Below, piece after piece: positions 11,073-19,372 of a stretch of 64,000 nt of DNA. The DNA lies in NCBI GenBank assembly GCA_963823665.1, contig CAWGMQ010000003.1:1248001-1312000 (forward strand), given 5' to 3'. The translations under genes and the position numbers were made by a program. Positions within the stretch are counted from its first letter, which is position 1, and the number at the start of each line of letters is the position of its first letter. This DNA is from an uncultured Planctomycetota bacterium (GTDB lineage: Bacteria; Planctomycetota; Planctomycetia; Isosphaerales; Isosphaeraceae). The notes under the pieces were generated by a model, which saw nothing but the letters and a program-made list of their open reading frames with translations, did not search any database and had not been told where the DNA came from.

Positions 11073-11618
11073 ACACGCTTCCTTTCGAGGCGCGAGCCGC
11101 CCGGTCCATCCGGCCGCGCTCCGACCCGCGGCTCGCTCGCTCGCCGGCAGCTCAGGCTCGTATCCTAGCGGCCACCTTGCTGCGAGCGAAAGGGGGCGGT
11201 GGAGTCATTCGGCGCTCATGGGCTCGGCGAATCCGCGGCTCATTCCGTCGTCCACGCCCACTCGCACTCGTATACTTTGCGAGTGAACGGGATTGAGTGA
11301 GGGAGACCCCGTTCACGATGCCGGATCGGAGCAGAGAAGGGGCAAATCAAAACCAGCGTGGGGATGACAAATTCACGTGCGGCGAGACCGGCAACAGCAG
11401 CGTGGCGGAGATTGGAGAGGGAAATGCGGATGCGCACCGAGGTCGAGCGGGAGCTCGTTCTTGCCCACCGCGGAGCGGTTTAGTTCAACTAGCCATGTGG
11501 TGGCGGACACCTTTTCCTGGCAGTTTTCCTCCCCGTGGAATGAAAAACTAGCTGCGCCCCGGTTTCCTCCCCCGCGCCCCCGTTTCCATCCCGGCAGGTC
11601 ATCCGATCGGCCGCGGGC

Positions 11619-13192
11619 CTATCTGGCGACGGCTCGGGCTGCGCGGACGGCGTCGCGCGCCTGGAGGAGCCCGGCGCCGAAGGTGTAGTCGCGCCCCTTC
11701 CGGCCGATGTCGCGGCAGGTCTTTTCCATGATCGCCTTGACTTCCCAGGGGCACAGGTCCGGGTTGGCGGAGAGCATCAGCGCGGCGACCCCGGCGGTCT
11801 GCGCGCCAGTGAAGGAGTTGCCGCCCCGGACGTCGACCAGCGCCATCTGGTCGTTCTCCTTCGAGAAGATCGCGCCATTCTCCGGCCGCGCCCAGCGCGG
11901 GAATCCGCCGAACACGCCCGTCACGTCGGGCTTGGCGAGGGGCCGCGACGGCGGGTAGTCTTCGTAGAACTTCACCCCATCCCAGGTGCAGGGGCCTTCG
12001 CTGCTCTCGTCGGCCTTCCTCCCGTCGCGCGTGATGCCGGCCGCGGTGATCACGCAGGGAACGTCCTTGGGCAGGGCGATCTCCTTCCCCCGTCGTAGAC
12101 GAGAGTAATTCCCCGCCCCACCGACGGCGACGATGCCCGCCGCCGACAGGTGCTCGAGCGCCGTCCGATAGAGGCCCCGGTAATTGCCGAGCGGCATGTC
12201 CTCCCACATATAGCTCAACGAGAGCACGTCCGCACCGTGGGCCGGGGCGTACTCGTACGCCTTCAGATAGCCCATGCCGCGCAGGACCATCAGCCGCGCC
12301 GGGGGGCGACGCCGGTGAGCAGATTCAGTGTGTTGATCGGACGGCCGGCGATGATCCCGGCGCACATGCTGCCGTGCGGCCACTTGAGGTCATCCCCGAT
12401 GTTCCAGTACGAGTCGCCCGCGAAGTCGTAGCCGAAGACGTCATCGACATAGCCATCGCCGTCGTCGTCCTTGCCGTTGAAGACCTCGAGGGGATTCCTC
12501 CACAGGGCACGGGTCAGGGCCGGCGTCAGCATGATCCCGGTGTCGTTGAGGGCCACCACGACCCCGCGGCCGGTGACCTTCTCCTCCTTCCACGCGGCGT
12601 CGACCTGGATGGTCGACAGGTTCCAGGAGAGGGTGAAGCCCTGGGTGGTGAACGGCTCGTCGCTGTCGTCCTCCCACTGGGCGATCGTTTGCCGGAAGAA
12701 TCTCTCCTTCTCGGGCGTTGCGGCCGGCTGATCGGGGTCCCGGTGCTGTTTCACCTGGCGGAGCGGGCGGCGCTGGAGATAGACGAAGGCGACCTCCTCG
12801 AGCGCGGCCAGGCGCTGGCAGGCGTCGCCCGTCGCGTCGCAGGTGAAGCCGTTGACGATCCAGTAGCGATCGAGGTCCCGGACCTTCTGTGACTTCTCCA
12901 GCTCGGCGACCCGGGTCGCGACCTGGCCCCACGAGCGGTCGGCCTTGGCTCGGAGCGTCTGGACGATCGCCGGCCGGAGCTCGCGCCGCTTCGCCCCGGC
13001 GTGCTCCGCGCAGAATCGTTCGTAAGCGCCGCGTTCGCCGAGCAACTGGTCGGCCATCCGGACGAACACGGCGTAAGTCTTCCGCCCGGTGCTGCCGATG
13101 TCGCGGTCGATCTTGCCCGCGACGTCGGCGGCGTTCGCCGCCGGGACCAGGCCGAAGAGGAGGGCCACGAAACAGCCCCGTGCCGCCGCCAT
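11619..13192 (-). CDS. S8 subtilisin-like serine peptidase, frameshift near 12300
   Basis: Triad motifs VALNDTG, PHGSMCAGIIAG and GNSFTGAQTAGVAALMLS; NGKDDDGDGYVDD loop; signal peptide and prodomain. Confidence 0.88.
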
Positions 13193-13460
13193 CGATGGAG
13201 GCCGGTAGACTGAGTCGGTATGATATTCCGATGGGCGAATCAACCGGGTCCGTGCCAGGAGTGCGATCATTCCAGGTCCCTCCTGAAGCTCGACTGGGTT
13301 CATTGATGTTAACCCAACGGCGGATGCCCGACAACGCACGAACGGCCGTCACTTCTGATCGTAGTCACAGCCTCGATTCAGGTGGCGACACTGAGCATCT
13401 ACACCCGATTGAGGGCAAGGGGATTCCGCCGGGTCGCCTTGGGGGATCGCTCCCCCAAGG

Positions 13461-15880
13461 GCCGGGTAAGGAGGTGACGTTACCGCCACCCCCTCCCCTC
13501 AGAACTGCACGTGAAAGTTTCCCTTCATGCAGCTCAAGCCTTCACGAACGCCCCTCGCAGGACGCGGCCGCTTTCGTCAGTCGTTCTTGGACATGGATCT
13601 GCCGATGACAGTTGGCATGCAACAACTCCAGGTTGTCGGCTGTGCCAGAACCGCCCCGGCTGCGCCAGATGCGATGGTGGAGATGCAAGTCTTCCTCTGC
13701 GATCCGCAGCGGTTGACCACAGACCACGCATCGTCCCTCTTGTTCCTTCCATAAGTATTCGATCCGACCCCGACCTGCCAGCGTTTGGCTCAGTTGCCAA
13801 CCCAGTCGTGCTTCCAGGTACAGTTCCCACTTCGGATCGTAGGGATTCACGTCGCTCCGGATCTTCACATAACGAATGATCTTCACTTTGGCTGCTTCCA
13901 TCAACTGGATCGGCCGGCCTTGGCCTTTCTGGTCAAACAGCGTACCGGTGAAGACCCAGTGGCGGTAACCGTCTTGCTGGAAGTATTTCTCCTTGATCCA
14001 CCTCCGGCCTTTGTTCTGGTGCCGTCGTCGACACCAACGCCACAATTTCTGGAAAATCCGGTGATCCACGTACGTAAAAGTGCGCTTGCTCGCCGCGTAA
14101 CGGTGGTACATGGTCCAGCCCTTGATCTGCTGATTCAAACGCCAGATCATCTCTCCTGCCGTTAGGCTGCCCGAGCCGTCGATCGTTTCCTGTATCTTGT
14201 TCAAGAACGTCTTCACGTTTCGCAAGGACGGCTTGGTGAACACCTTGCCGCAGCGATAGCGTCGCACATTCTGCCCCAAGAAATCGAAGCCATCCTCCAC
14301 ATGCGTGATCTGGGTTTTCTCGTGGGAAAGTTCCAAGCCGCGTTCCTTCAAGAAATGAGCCACGAGAGGTTGCACTTGGTCACGGAGGAGTTCCTTTGAG
14401 ATGCCCGTGATCAAGAAGTCATCCGCATAGCGGACCAGGTGGACTTTAAACTTCCGTTGTCGCCCGTGCTTCTCGGCGAACTGTTCCGCCAACAGCCGTT
14501 GCAGTCCATCCAGAGTCCAATTCGCCAGGACGGGTGAAATGATCCCGCCTTGAGGTGTTCCTTCCGTGGTGGCGAACCAGGCGTGCTTCTCCAGGAAACC
14601 CACTTTCAGCCATTGCCCGAGCAACTGCCGGTCCATGGGGACGTGCGTCAAGAGCCAGTCATGACTGATGCGATCAAAGCAAGCTTTGATGTCCCCTTCG
14701 AGAATCCATGCTGGACCGCTCCGATTACCCAAGACAATATGAGATTGTTCCAGGGCGTCGGCACAACGACGTTCCAGCCGAAAGCCATAGGAATGGCCGT
14801 CGGCTCGAGATTCCGCAATGGGATCGAGGCCTAGCAAGTATAATGCCTGCATGGCTCGATCTGACATGGTGGGAATTCCGAGAGGACGTCGCTTGCCGTT
14901 GCTTTTGGGAATGTACACCCGGCGGAGCGGTTGCGGTTGGTAACCGTGCCGACGCAGAGTGCTGAAAGCAGCCGACTTGGCTTCCGGTGTGTTCCAGAGA
15001 ACTCCGTCCACACCGGGAGTCTTCGCACCCGAATTACTGATGACTCGCAAAATGGCCAGGGCCCGGCCACTGAACGAGTGCGTGAGCAGATAAACCAGAG
15101 CCTTGACCTTATTCCATCTGCCCTCCGCAACAGCCTTCACGATACGCGCCTGGAGCCGACGGACTGTGCGCCAGACTTTCTTCCATTCGATGGAGTGCCA
15201 GTCGGGCGTAAGCTCGGGAGCCGCACCAGCAAGCATTTCTGCCGCCGACATATCTGCTTGTCTCCCTGAGTCGGTTGGCCAAGGTTCTCTCGTGACGGAA
15301 CACCTGAGGGAAGTCGGCACCGCTTTCGCGGTGAGGGGATGTCGTCCGTGGGAGGACTCACCCTCTATCCGATCGACTACCGAACGGCATTGGCTTGCTC
15401 CCTCATCCTCCACCCGCCGCCCCATCGGCGACGCCTTACGACGGTCCTACCCCGAAGGGAGGGCGACGGGCTTACCACGTTCCACGGATGAATCACGGAT
15501 GGTTTAGGCTCTGCCTCTCCGCCGGTGGCTCGGATGACGACGACAGGGGATGGGAAATCCCACTGTACCTGGCCACGTACCTTTTTGGTTCAAGCCTCTC
15601 AGCGCCTTTGGCTTGTTGGATCTCACGACGTTTATCGGCAGTTCACCTGGATTAGCCATGCCATCCACCCCTGGCCCCCGACCGCATTGGCGTTCGCAGT
15701 CGCCGGATTCCCTCACGGGATATCCAACCACCCGAAGGTGAGGTTACGTTGTCCCAAGAGCTTCGCACGGTCGGATTGCTCCGGCCGCACGTCCTGGTAG
15801 GGTTCCGGTGGTCGTACATCGGGTTATGTCCTGGTTGCAAATCCAGTCATAACAGACTCATCCGCAGCTTCGTTTCGCGA
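13461..15880 (-). mobile_element. Group II intron, inner (CL/IIB-like, RT-maturase-HNH), nested in DVI of the outer intron
   Basis: 5' end TCGCGAAACGAAG at 15880. DV GAGCTGCATGAAGGGAAACTTTCACGTGCAGTTC at 13502-13535. DVI ends CTTACCCGGC at 13461. EBS1 TTCCCA (15551-15556) and EBS2 AGATCC (15618-15623) match the flanking host sequence. Confidence 0.92.
13542..15251 (-). CDS. ltrA: Group II intron-encoded reverse transcriptase/maturase/HNH endonuclease (intact, about 569 aa)
   Basis: RT N-terminal [45 protein letters not shown], domain X, and C-terminal CxxC...HH...NL..LH.NCH HNH. Confidence 0.96.
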
Positions 15881-15927
15881 CTCCCACAGATCCGGGCTTG
15901 CCCAATTAAGGCACCCGGCTCGTCATG

Positions 15928-17278
15928 TCACTTGTTCGCTACGAGACGGCATACTGAGTGGATCGCAATCGCTGCCGGAAGCGGTTTATGCTTCAGGAAC
16001 CGAGCGAACCGTTCCCATGTCATCCGACGGCCGCGCCGCGGCGCGACAGCCAGTGCTGCCAGAGCCAGGTGGCACCACTGCGAAACCGTGACAACATTTT
16101 GGAGTTGCCGGTGATTCCGTAGTAGGCATAGTGGCCTAGCAGTTTCTGACCTAGTATCCGGTGCTGCACCTTGAGCGGTTGATGGCGATTTTGCGACACC
16201 AATCCGCCAACGTTCGCAGGCTGCGGCGAAATCGACTTTTGGACGTCTTGCGCTTCACCACCCAGCGACCCTGCCGGGAGCGACCCCAGTAATGGGTGAA
16301 CGCCAGCAGGTCGAAAGTCCCTGGTGGAGTTCGTGTGGGTCTGCCTTCCGGTTTGGGACGGTCCGATGGCCGCTCGAACGGCACCAGCCGCGTCTTGTCC
16401 GGGTGGATGGTCAAGCCGTACTTCTCAAAGCGTTTGGGCAACACATTCATCACACGCCGTGCGTCGGACTCGCATGAGAAGACCATGACGAAGTCGTCCG
16501 CATAGCGGATCAAGAACGATCTGCCCATCATCCGAGGCTGAACCTCCCGCTCGAACCACTCGTCCAGCACGTAGTGCAGGAAGATATTCGAAAGGATCGG
16601 GCTGATCACACCCCCTTGTGGCGACCCCATTTCGGGGTGCGTAACGCACCCGTTCTCGAAGACGCCCGCATTGAGCCATTTGCCGATGAGCCGGAGCAGC
16701 ACTCCGTCTCGCACCCGACGCTTGAGGAAGTCGCGTAGATGGCCGTGGTCAATCGTGTCAAAGAACTTACGAATGTCCACATCCACTACCCATCCGCCCT
16801 TCATGTTCATCGTCTGTTGCCACAGGCTCTCTGACGCAGTGTGTGCCGATCGCTCGGGCCGGAAGCCATGCGAGCAGTTCTTGAAGTCCTGCTCGTATAT
16901 CGCCTCCAGAACCATCACGACAGCACGCTGGAGCACTTTATCCTCGAAGGTCGGGATTCCCAGTGGCCGGGTTTCGGTCGCTGAGCCTGCCTTGGGGATA
17001 TGCACTCGCCGCACAGGCGGTGCGTGGTACGTACCGGACTTGGCTCGTTCCAGCAGCGACCGTAGGTTCGGGACCAGGTTCGCTGCGTAGGCCTCGCCAT
17101 CTTGTCCGTCTACGCCCACCGCCCCGTCTTGGCGGGTCCGGTAGTAAGCTGTGAGCAGCCAATCGAGGTCGATGAAGTGCCCCAGGGATGTGAATCCCAT
17201 CTCCGGGCTTCGCCGAGCGAGTTCCGCTATCCGTTGTTGTTTCGTGGACACGTCCACGGGTTCCGATGCACCCGCCAT
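15928..17278 (-). CDS. ltrA: Group II intron reverse transcriptase/maturase without endonuclease domain; two frameshifts (~16190, ~16040)
   Basis: AVGVDG, RPLGIP, PQGGVISP, RYADD, FDLLAFTHYW. Continues in shifted frames as GHYAYYGITGN...MTWERF...LP to a stop just before DV. Confidence 0.93.
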
Positions 17279-17857
17279 GTTTCCCTCCAACGGTTGTGTG
17301 ACATGGCGTCTCCTTCCCTCCACCGGGTCCCTCGGAGTGGTTCCCCGGCTTCAACGGTACTACGAGACGCTCCGACTCCCATCCGCCCCTTTCGCCGCAC
17401 TTCGTTGCCTTCGTGTGGCGATACCACCCTTGCGTCCTGTTCGCTCCCAGCGACCCGACGCGGGGTCGTGGGCCGGGGAGTTGGTATTCCGGATCCCGAG
17501 CCGGAAATGTCAGTGGAGACGGATGGGGCTCTCAGGTTCCCGAGCAACCCTCGCGTCCCTGCGCCATGTTCTTGGACCCCGGCAGGACCGAACACGCCAG
17601 GCCATTGCGGCGTGTCGACACGGCCCCCGCTTGTGTCTACAACGGAGGCTCCCACGATGAGTATTTCGGGGCTCGATAGCATGGCATGGAGACTCGCTGT
17701 CTACGCTTCGCAGTGAGGGTCACCCCTCCCCACGCAAGACTTGCTTCCGGCTGCCGGCCAGGCTCTGCCGGGCGGGATTCGTTAACCCGCAGGGTCGCGA
17801 TGAAAGGTTTCTGTGTTTCGAGGCACTTCCTCCTTTCTCGAGCTTTTCCTGACGCAA

Positions 17858-17877
17858 AGACACCCATCGTTTTGTCG
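17858..17877 (-). repeat. GGGTGTCT motif copy (GACAAAACGATGGGTGTCT), forming the 5' exon of the outer intron
   Basis: Near-identical to 20849-20868 (GACAAAAAGGGTGGGTGTCT). Joined to the 3' exon it reads GGGTGTCT|GGAATCCC. Confidence 0.75.
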
Positions 17878-17883
17878 AGGGCG

Positions 17884-18168
17884 TTGACTTCCTATCCACG
17901 GCGAATGATTTTTGACAGCTTGGAGATCCATCTCAGCCACCGGCCGACCCACCGATCCCGCCGAATCAAGGAAATGCGGCCGAACCCCGTTGCCGGGTGG
18001 GAACTGCGGCTCGGTGACTATCGGGTCCTCTATGATGTGGATGATCAGAGGCGCGTCGTCCAAGTCCAGGTCATCGGTGAGAAAGTCGGCAACCGACTCA
18101 TCGTGCAAGGCGAGGAGTATTCCGCCCATGAAAGTGATCGACCTGAACGAGGCGAAGGCGAATCTTGA
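17884..18168 (+). pseudogene. RelE/ParE-family toxin, probably 5'-truncated
   Basis: WELRLGDYRVLYDVD..VVQVQVIGEK RelE signature. The N-terminus is short and abuts the GGGTGTCT motif. Confidence 0.75.
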
Positions 18169-18319
18169 GGGTTATGCCGAAGAGTGCCAACAATCGCCGG
18201 TGATTGTCACGATTGGAGGGATCCCGAAATTCGAGCTCGTCCCGATCCACACGGACGATCCCGAGTTCATCGACCGCCTGCTCGAAGAGAACGAGACGAG
18301 GGCCGCTCGAAAGATCTGA
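18128..18319 (+). CDS. Phd/YefM-family antitoxin, probably 3'-truncated
   Basis: MKVIDLNEAKANLEGYAEEC..PVIVT..G.PKFELVP Phd-like N-terminus; overlaps the toxin gene. Confidence 0.72.
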   Translation: MKVIDLNEAKANLEGYAEECQQSPVIVTIGGIPKFELVPIHTDDPEFIDRLLEENETRAARKI

Positions 18320-18469: not shown

Positions 18470-18844
18470 GACGCGACACTCCGCGGCATTCACCCGTTGG
18501 GGTCTATCGTGCGTCGCCACTTACACTGTATACCAAGGCGGCTGGCATCGGTAGTTCGGTTGGACGGCGAGCGAGGCTGTGAGCAGCCGGGCTCCGCGCC
18601 TGGGTTGGCGCAACGTCAAGATCGGTTCGTGACACCTTTGCTGGGAATTCGATTGGATTCGAGGCCGGCCAGTGATGTTTCCTTCGCCGGCGCGGCAAGT
18701 GACGAACTCGTCGCATCGGTCGGCGCGACGCACGCGGCCGAGCGGGGCCCAGATACCCGCTGTGTGCCGGTTGAAGTGGATGCCCTAAACTGCCCCGATG
18801 ACCGGGTGTTTGCCTTGCTCCGCGCCTTCCTTACTTGGATGAGT

Positions 18845-18903
18845 GGGTGTCTGCCTTCCATTCCCCCCAAAGGTGGGTGTCTGACATCCGGTGTCTGACA
18901 TCC
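18845..18903 (+). repeat. Cluster of GGGTGTCT motifs with a 14-bp perfect tandem duplication (GGTGTCTGACATCC x2)
   Basis: Motifs at 18845, 18875 and 18890; duplication units 18876-18889 and 18890-18903. Confidence 0.8.
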
Positions 18904-19372
18904 CCGGCCAACGAATTCGCCAACCTCTGGCAGCGCCGCATCTCCTTCCGTGTCGGGGCGCTGATCACCGGGGTGGTCGGCGTCGTGATCCAGACGTGGC
19001 GGCTGATGGAGGACTCTTCCGGCTACATCTTCAAGTGGCTCATCGCTTACTCGGCGCTGCTCGGCGCGATGGGCGGCGTCCTCATCGCGGACTACTTCCT
19101 GGTGTGCCGGACGCGGCTCGACCTGCAGGCGTGGGGCGGGTCGTGCTGGTACACGGGCAGCTTCCACGCCGCCGGCCTGCTAGCCCCCGCCGGCGAGGGT
19201 CATCCCCTGCGTGCCGGGGTCCCTGGCCACCGTCGGACTGGTAGAGGTGATGCCGTCCTTGACGGACCTGTACCACTCTGCCTGGTCTCTCGGTTTCGGG
19301 ACGTCCCTCCTGGTATACTCGGGCCTGACGCTCCGGCGCCCCGGCGGGGCCGCGTCGCCACGCGGCTCTTGA
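18901..19372 (+). pseudogene. NCS1 nucleobase:cation symporter (cytosine/allantoin permease), C-terminal fragment
   Basis: SPANEFANLW.RRISFRVGALITGVVG...WLIAYSALLGAMGGVLIADYFLV. Starts immediately after the motif and degenerates downstream. Confidence 0.78.

Follow-up and report, generated by a model that had tools for sequence, protein, structure and literature searches.

A CL1/IIB1 group II intron lineage that appears to target the domain V end and branch helix of class E-type introns

Introns that home into other introns are already known, as passages of PMC4424553, PMC2882425, PMC4649490 and PMC8632793 attest. Here we describe two nested group II introns on the minus strand of a 64,000-nt stretch of an uncultured planctomycete genome of the Isosphaeraceae (assembly GCA_963823665.1, contig CAWGMQ010000003.1, positions 1,248,001 to 1,312,000; the stretch is hereafter the window, and the genome G000). 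An apparently class E-type host runs from 17857 to 13428, and its domain VI (DVI) is interrupted, just past domain V (DV), by a CL1/IIB1 intron running from 15880 to 13461. Similar to this case, a CL1/IIB1 intron of Thermosynechococcus elongatus, TeI3 (F3), lies repeatedly at one site of another intron, TeI4 (F1), and the inner copies are identical while the outer ones have diverged, which the passages of PMC2882425 argue to reflect independent insertion; separate mobility of the two introns is also demonstrated there. In T. elongatus, however, the inner intron lacks an open reading frame (ORF), its host is a close sibling, and the site, flanked by two start codons, is in domain IV. In the window, the invader is an autonomous intron, and it splits the branch-point helix of a host from an unrelated class, whose domain V it appears to read.

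Other described systems share single features with this locus. Passages of PMC4424553 on the nested introns of Methanosarcina acetivorans present site-specific homing into group II introns as a perpetual homing site and report nested arrays trimmed by recombination, and such trimming is seen here at loci L126 and L285. A bacterial DVI insertion is on record for Bacteroides thetaiotaomicron, where the host of B.t.I4 is tabulated as "RNA domain 6 of B.t.I3" (Table S1 of PMC3552965). This is a single table entry for a class D intron without endonuclease, unlike the CL1 intron with an HNH domain found here, and no further description of B.t.I4 was found in the literature searched. In Trichodesmium, Tr.e.I7/I8 likewise combines a IIB1 inner intron with the ribozyme part of an unrelated host, with sequential splicing in vivo; there the inner intron sits in domain I, at one locus in one genus, and the passages of PMC4649490 speak of no lineage-wide targeting. 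The EcKTE56.groEL lineage is, as here, a CL1/IIB1 clade tied to one genetic context, but according to passages of PMC12584367 that context is the start and stop codons of housekeeping genes, and its introns carry a large domain I insertion that is not seen in ours. The literature searched, outside which lay the curated intron database and subscription papers, held no account of a lineage whose exon-binding sites (EBS) read the DV/DVI region; PMC7306698 contained no twintron passage, and the supplement of PMC8643678 gave no match.

The boundaries of the nested pair could be read from the genome itself. An empty host allele on another contig of G000 (L011, C7:960491), in which GGATCTGTGGGAG runs straight into CCTTGG, fixes both junctions of the inner intron, which is 2,420 nt long (13461-15880, minus strand) and has the ends TCGCG...CCCGGC. 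The first-pass annotation, made from the letters of the window, had predicted the host 3' end that would be restored by removing 13461-15880, and the empty allele matches that prediction exactly. The rejoined sequence folds as a DV hairpin followed by a DVI hairpin (z -4.85; 0/200 shuffles equally stable), and the DVI hairpin has an unpaired A, 7 nt before its end, that corresponds to window position 13434. The insertion point lies 5 nt into the 5' strand of DVI, two pairs above this putative branch A and about 45 nt past the host stop codon. Thus, the basal stem of DVI is indeed split, as had been proposed, but the cut falls within the DVI 5' strand and not in the DV/DVI linker; we nevertheless refer to it as the DV/DVI site for brevity. 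A 314-nt contig from a public run (X2, possibly of the same campaign as the source) crosses the 15880/15881 junction with one mismatch, and the same inner/host junction was found again in other genomes and metagenome contigs. We considered the ORF-homing type of nested intron known from Methanosarcina and T. elongatus and rejected it, since the site is in DVI rather than in domain IV or an ORF. A 2003 study by Dai and Zimmerly is said to have described M. acetivorans introns that target intron ORFs, not the ribozyme core.

By its sequence, the inner element is a CL1/IIB1 group II intron. Its protein carries RVT_N, maturase and HNH domains (Pfam). Among proteins of known structure, the CL1 maturase of T. 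elongatus (6ME0) is the nearest (E 9e-181), with a score of 605 bits, whereas LtrA and class C proteins score no more than 137 bits; the named relatives are labelled Isosphaeraceae or Planctomycetota. Domain I (RF02012, 15674-15823) and DV/DVI (RF00029, 13461-13537) score above the Rfam cut-offs, and DVI has a bulged A. The ends TCGCG...GC depart from the consensus GUGYG...AY, but relatives start with GTGCG, TTGCG or CTGCG and end with AC or GC, so the ends of the window intron are a variant within the class. Both nested introns begin with T instead of G and end in GGC instead of AY (window 15876-15880 and 13461-13463 for the inner one). In relatives, a TTGCG start is frequently matched by a GC end and a GTGCG start by an AC end, so the two boundaries may covary, although exceptions exist. 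In a zombie twintron, a degenerate inner intron is not removed when the outer one splices (PMC7049729); the inner intron here has an intact ORF, DV, DVI and EBS pairings, and exists in seven identical copies, so we rejected this description.

The host appears to be a class E-type intron. Its protein is a reverse transcriptase (RT)/maturase in which Pfam finds no HNH domain. Compared with RTs of Sinorhizobium meliloti pRmeGR4b, it shares 43% identity with the class E-type one and 37% with the class D one; the class thus depends on one reference, a disrupted RT that we take to belong to the class E intron named in PMC5894124. The domain I model RF02005 matches both the host (17567-17781) and that reference, and the host DV loop has 5 nt, a class E/F feature according to passages of PMC3753933. 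The motif AGACAC in host domain I is its likely EBS1. The host gene in the window is frameshifted and gives 375 aa, as compared to 450 aa in two intact sister copies.

To place the EBS elements we relied on covariation, since minimum-free-energy folds were weak (domain I alone z -1.54, not significant; EBS1 hairpin alone z -1.67). The inner intron has all of the expected pairings with its 5' flank, namely EBS1, EBS2 and EBS2a with the corresponding intron-binding sites (IBS). We compared 41 distinct intron/flank pairs of CL1 relatives whose targets are for the most part unrelated. The loop equivalent to AGATCC is paired with target bases -13 to -9 in 181/205 cells, against a mean of 67.6 and a maximum of 99 in 5000 shuffles. 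The base preceding EBS2 pairs with -14 by Watson-Crick rules in 36/41, and C stands at target position -14 in 49/53; this EBS2a contact is, per passages of PMC8643678, needed for DNA integration and dispensable for splicing. In an alignment of 18 rows that we picked for diversity, two of them with another EBS2, 97.4% of 234 cells are paired (equalled in 0/500 shuffles; slid controls reach at most 64%), and 11 of the 13 pairs show changes on both sides. Compensatory EBS1/IBS1 changes include CCTGCA/TGCAGG and CCCGCA/CGCGGG, as well as CCCCCA with TGGGGG. Over 21 combinations, EBS1 and the host IBS1 form 98 Watson-Crick cells versus 85.6 when shuffled (p 0.0005), though few independent events lie behind this value. 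Because EBS1 begins with U, both G and A are tolerated at -1. The loops that the first-pass annotation had proposed as EBS1 and EBS2 (TTCCCA at 15556-15551 and AGATCC at 15623-15618) are therefore correct in motif and coordinates, and they covary with their targets across relatives.

Within G000, occupancy follows the match between intron and site. This census consists of sequence searches and 20 fetched stretches and may be incomplete; 40/86 candidates were scored, and further host remnants are possible. The inner intron is present in seven complete copies that are 100% identical and spread over four contigs, together with one 182-nt 3' fragment, and a host DVI tail adjoins all eight (four in the protein-coding host, three in two kinds of ORF-less host, and the fragment). 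Sites reading CGGATCTGTGGGAR, with a full EBS2 match and at most one G-U pair in EBS1, are occupied in 7/8 cases, as compared to 0/19 host ends with any further mismatch or wobble. The 19 empty ends comprise 14 with GGATCA, one with GGCTCT, two with IBS1 TGGGGG and two with two changes (Fisher p 9e-6, for copies that are kin and not independent). Each of the two haplotypes of the protein-coding host has filled copies, and one of them also has an empty perfect site, which indicates several separate entries of the inner intron. The inner intron's own DV/DVI junction has three mismatches in 12 positions, and 0/8 own junctions are interrupted in G000. The idea that this difference prevents self-insertion thus holds for the window intron and fails as a rule for the family; relatives with EBS1 CTCCCT occupy CL-type DV/DVI sites, including those of their own kind, in tandem nests (L242, L285, L291).

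The association extends well beyond the source genome. A sister intron in genome G417, with RNA 86% alike and a different protein, has 11 of 12 readable junctions at DV/DVI, the other being a non-intron site that matches EBS2, and all seven genuine host ends in G417 that match the site pattern are occupied. Single DV/DVI cases, two of them ORF-less, were found in G240, G368, G308, G216, G184 and L126. A metagenome scan keyed on the EBS2 loop only, and thus blind to the target, returned 69 loci; 8 failed the intron filter, 10 without a readable 5' end were dropped, and 57 junctions reduced to 44 distinct ones. Two of these were too short to score, both carrying the DV 3' strand. The scorable distinct insertions were at DV/DVI in 38/42 cases, 35 in class E-type hosts with 26 different flanks and three in canonical CL-type hosts, which supports the earlier proposal of specialisation on class E-type DV/DVI, with EBS covariation throughout the lineage. 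Where upstream host proteins are present, they mostly resemble the class E-type reference, and the domain I tree of the RNA relatives spans about 0.6-0.7 substitutions per site. The EBS2 pattern had 0 matches in viral contigs; in 400 genomes of the phylum, with one mismatch allowed, it had five matches outside G000, none of them an intron; and the plasmid collection held distant relatives only.

Two Chloroflexota CL1 introns of a Ktedonobacteria family are inserted at canonical DV/DVI of other introns and read the DV end there, each in a register of its own that differs from the one above, and they suggest independent origins of DV targeting: L089, with EBS2 AACCAC, in two copies (G800 C1:7697356 and 8731802), and L360, at one locus. 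The host protein of L089 looks ML-like. None of the conclusions depends on the unpublished genome G820. At L126:2717-4661, a class D-like intron interrupts the YADD motif between an upstream class E-type RT and a downstream CL1 RT, an arrangement that likely arose by recombination between two copies with deletion of the twintron middle. Separately, planctomycete CL1 introns with matching EBS lie directly after attC-like hairpins ending in GTTAG(R) at L071, L077, L145, L177, L184 and L191. Whereas PMC7923331 reports one IIB1/attC case, these six loci have the look of a small lineage.

We would like to note that the protein does not follow the target. In a quick tree, the window protein clusters with those of planctomycete introns whose EBS loops and targets differ from its own, and it is 81-89% identical to proteins of planctomycete introns with unrelated targets; the other members that target DV/DVI fall into two or three separate protein clades. 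Collecting the flanks of protein homologues, as the first-pass annotation had suggested, did not bear out its expectation, because a host DVI tail followed only 2/71 3' ends (two further rule matches were discarded by eye) and the targets were mostly others. We therefore did not group the relatives by protein, as similar proteins are common to introns of other specificity. From this distribution, the target would be set by the RNA, with protein partners being exchanged.

Taken together, the inner element is very probably an active CL1/IIB1 retroelement belonging to an RNA lineage that reads the DV 3' strand and DVI start of class E-type introns, and thus a parasite of a parasite. Location, recurrence, EBS/IBS complementarity with covariation, and occupancy following the match were observed directly, and the retrohoming steps given here are modelled on established group II and IIB1 intron biology. 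The inner ribonucleoprotein would reverse-splice into the double-stranded host DNA site through EBS2a, EBS2, EBS1 and probably EBS3, the HNH domain would cut the opposite strand, and the RT would copy the intron in. An RNA target is unlikely, since IBS2 and IBS1 are already paired inside host DV/DVI and EBS2a is conserved. In the precursor, IBS1 would favour the EBS1 of the inner intron over the host DVI 3' strand, which lies 2.4 kb away (duplex energies of -8.6 kcal/mol for the EBS1 loop with IBS1 versus -5.3 kcal/mol for IBS1 with the DVI 3' strand). Judging from these pairing energies, it is plausible that splicing is ordered, the inner intron before the host. Excision would rebuild the host branch helix, and the host would then move without its passenger and create new empty sites, which the inner intron would invade again. 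For the inner intron, the host would be less a vehicle than a place to land that is harmless and constantly renewed, and that also provides transcription. If the inner intron must leave before the host splices, mobile host RNA would lack it, and identical inner copies in divergent hosts as well as empty alleles point to independent insertions. The suggestion that the inner intron hitch-hikes on host mobility is accordingly unsupported.

Several observations weigh against this reading. GGATCA sites are occupied in G368 and G413, and position -8, the base by which most empty sites in G000 differ from the filled ones, is frequently unpaired in relatives with other targets; for these two reasons, the empty ORF-less hosts in G000 may simply be recent. 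The GCAGG covariation is restricted to one subclade, with few independent events. Four of the 42 metagenome insertions lie outside an intact DV, one of them at a DV remnant, and close RNA relatives with other EBS loops have ordinary targets (L165, L167). Contigs from RNA runs showed no joint that skips 13461-15880, an uninformative result from contigs only, mostly of relatives. Furthermore, a truncated inner intron followed by a host DVI tail without the host body occurs at G000 C8, G216 and G308, the first two directly behind the host's own target motif, and class E introns splice by hydrolysis in vitro (passages of PMC3753933).

The last two points belong to an alternative that we regard as unlikely, in which the host splices with the inner intron looped out of DVI and the whole 4.4-kb twintron moves as a composite, giving much of the copy number. 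Hydrolytic splicing could relax the need for a branch helix, the truncated fragments fit abortive copying of a composite RNA, the filled copies in the window (C3) and on C11 have a host haplotype in common, frameshift included, and passages of PMC2882425 name such movement as a possibility. However, the fragments can also be explained as DNA deletions at short homologies beside tandem target repeats, the insertion cuts the helix beside the branch A, and identical inner copies in different host families and haplotypes, along with the empty alleles, require independent insertion anyway.

An ordinary CL1 intron without specialisation, whose target happened to lie in a locally abundant repeat and which spread by one insertion and subsequent duplication or gene conversion, would agree with the close protein similarity to introns of unrelated targets noted above and with ectopic insertions at matching non-intron sites (G417 C56, L243, L259). 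We consider this highly improbable and largely refuted, as the same site is used by RNA relatives at the divergence given above and with proteins of at least three clades, in the 26 class E-type host flanks and with compensatory EBS1 changes. Lastly, an assembly chimera of two repeats is conceivable, as the genome was assembled from a long-read metagenome, abounds in intron repeats and has single-base indels among its host copies. It is refuted by base-precise junctions at eight places, the empty allele, the bridging X2 contig and the recurrence of this junction in dozens of independent metagenome contigs.

The coordinates of the nested pair are collected in Table 1. Insertions of the host, and of its 13 ORF-less derivatives, which are near-identical and about 730 nt long, occur in a repeat ending GGGTGTCT followed by NNCATCC-like bases; the GGGTGTCT motif resembles a repetitive extragenic palindromic (REP)-type repeat, and the insertions are frequently clustered or tandem (window 17858-17870 and 18840-18905; G000 C11:551451-580358, C6:911025-923376 and C10:1458545-1460035). 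In some host remnants the sequence begins within domain V and opens with a short inverted duplication in which AGATCC precedes GGATC (G000 C3:129335 and C5:1041401; L252, L235, L236). These retain IBS2 and IBS1, three contain the inner parasite, and they could stem from reverse transcription halted at the DV hairpin. Directly downstream of the twintron lies a protease gene, apparently frameshift-split near 12300 (window 11599-13339, minus strand), which we take from its motifs to be subtilase-like. Immediately upstream of the host intron are two small genes that by eye resemble a toxin-antitoxin pair, one RelE-like and the other Phd-like (window 17900-18300, plus strand).

Table 1. Features of the nested introns, in window coordinates.
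Feature	Position	Strand	Support
Inner CL1/IIB1 group II intron, 2,420 nt	13461..15880	-	Seven identical full copies, empty allele, Rfam
Inner intron-encoded protein, intact: RVT_N, RT (YADD), maturase, HNH endonuclease	13542..15251	-	Pfam, translation
EBS1 TTCCCA, tip of domain Id hairpin	15551..15556	-	Alignment/covariation
EBS2 AGATCC	15618..15623	-	Pairing across 41 intron/flank pairs
EBS2a G, partner C at target -14	15624	-	Rule in passages of PMC8643678; Watson-Crick in 36/41 pairs
Tentative EBS3 candidate, G; its partner would be C 13460 at +1	15517	-	Best column, complementary to +1 in 17/24
Inner DV and DVI, canonical type	13461..13537	-	RF00029, 63.4 bits; fold z -5.82
Host intron upstream of the insertion, 5' end TTGCG: domains I-V plus 5 nt of DVI	15881..17857	-	RF02005; 5' end recurs behind GGGTGTCT in many copies; six protein-coding copies
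Host RT/maturase gene without endonuclease, frameshifted, stop at 16151	15928..17278	-	Pfam, sister-copy comparison
Host domain V, 5-nt loop, 3' strand CGGATC	15889..15921	-	Empty-allele fold; pRmeGR4b class E-type intron has the same GGATCTGTG end
Target: IBS2a C 15894; IBS2 GGATCT 15893-15888; spacer G; IBS1 TGGGAG 15886-15881	15881..15894	-	
Remaining host DVI, putative branch A 13434, host 3' end	13428..13460	-	Empty allele, fold
Host's own 5' target, repeated genomic motif ending GGGTGTCT	17858..17870	-	

The finding is real and has good comparative support, and within the literature searched it represents a new form of intron-in-intron homing. Standard intron pipelines drop twintrons or overlook the outer intron (PMC4028801, PMC8919778), and RF00029 fails to detect these hosts even as empty alleles, which together explain how a lineage of this kind could escape notice. 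We give even chances to a broader picture, in which an old and widespread CL1 guild is fixed on the DV end and branch helix, where other introns have the least freedom to change, tracks its hosts by compensatory EBS changes, has swapped proteins, arose more than once and gates host splicing by mutually exclusive pairing. Hosts would escape through free linker bases, as the 14 empty GGATCA ends may illustrate, and an arms race between introns would follow that can be read from genomes; escape through the -8 base in particular is offered purely as a hypothesis. With a lineage very probably specialised in this manner, intron-in-intron homing, so far known for ORFs and domain IV, now reaches the ribozyme core, and it would be no curiosity here but the habit of a whole lineage. 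One 6-nt segment would have to act first as IBS1 for the inner intron and then as part of the host branch helix, which makes these twintrons a natural test of ordered splicing, and the system could also test whether one retroelement can limit the spread of another.

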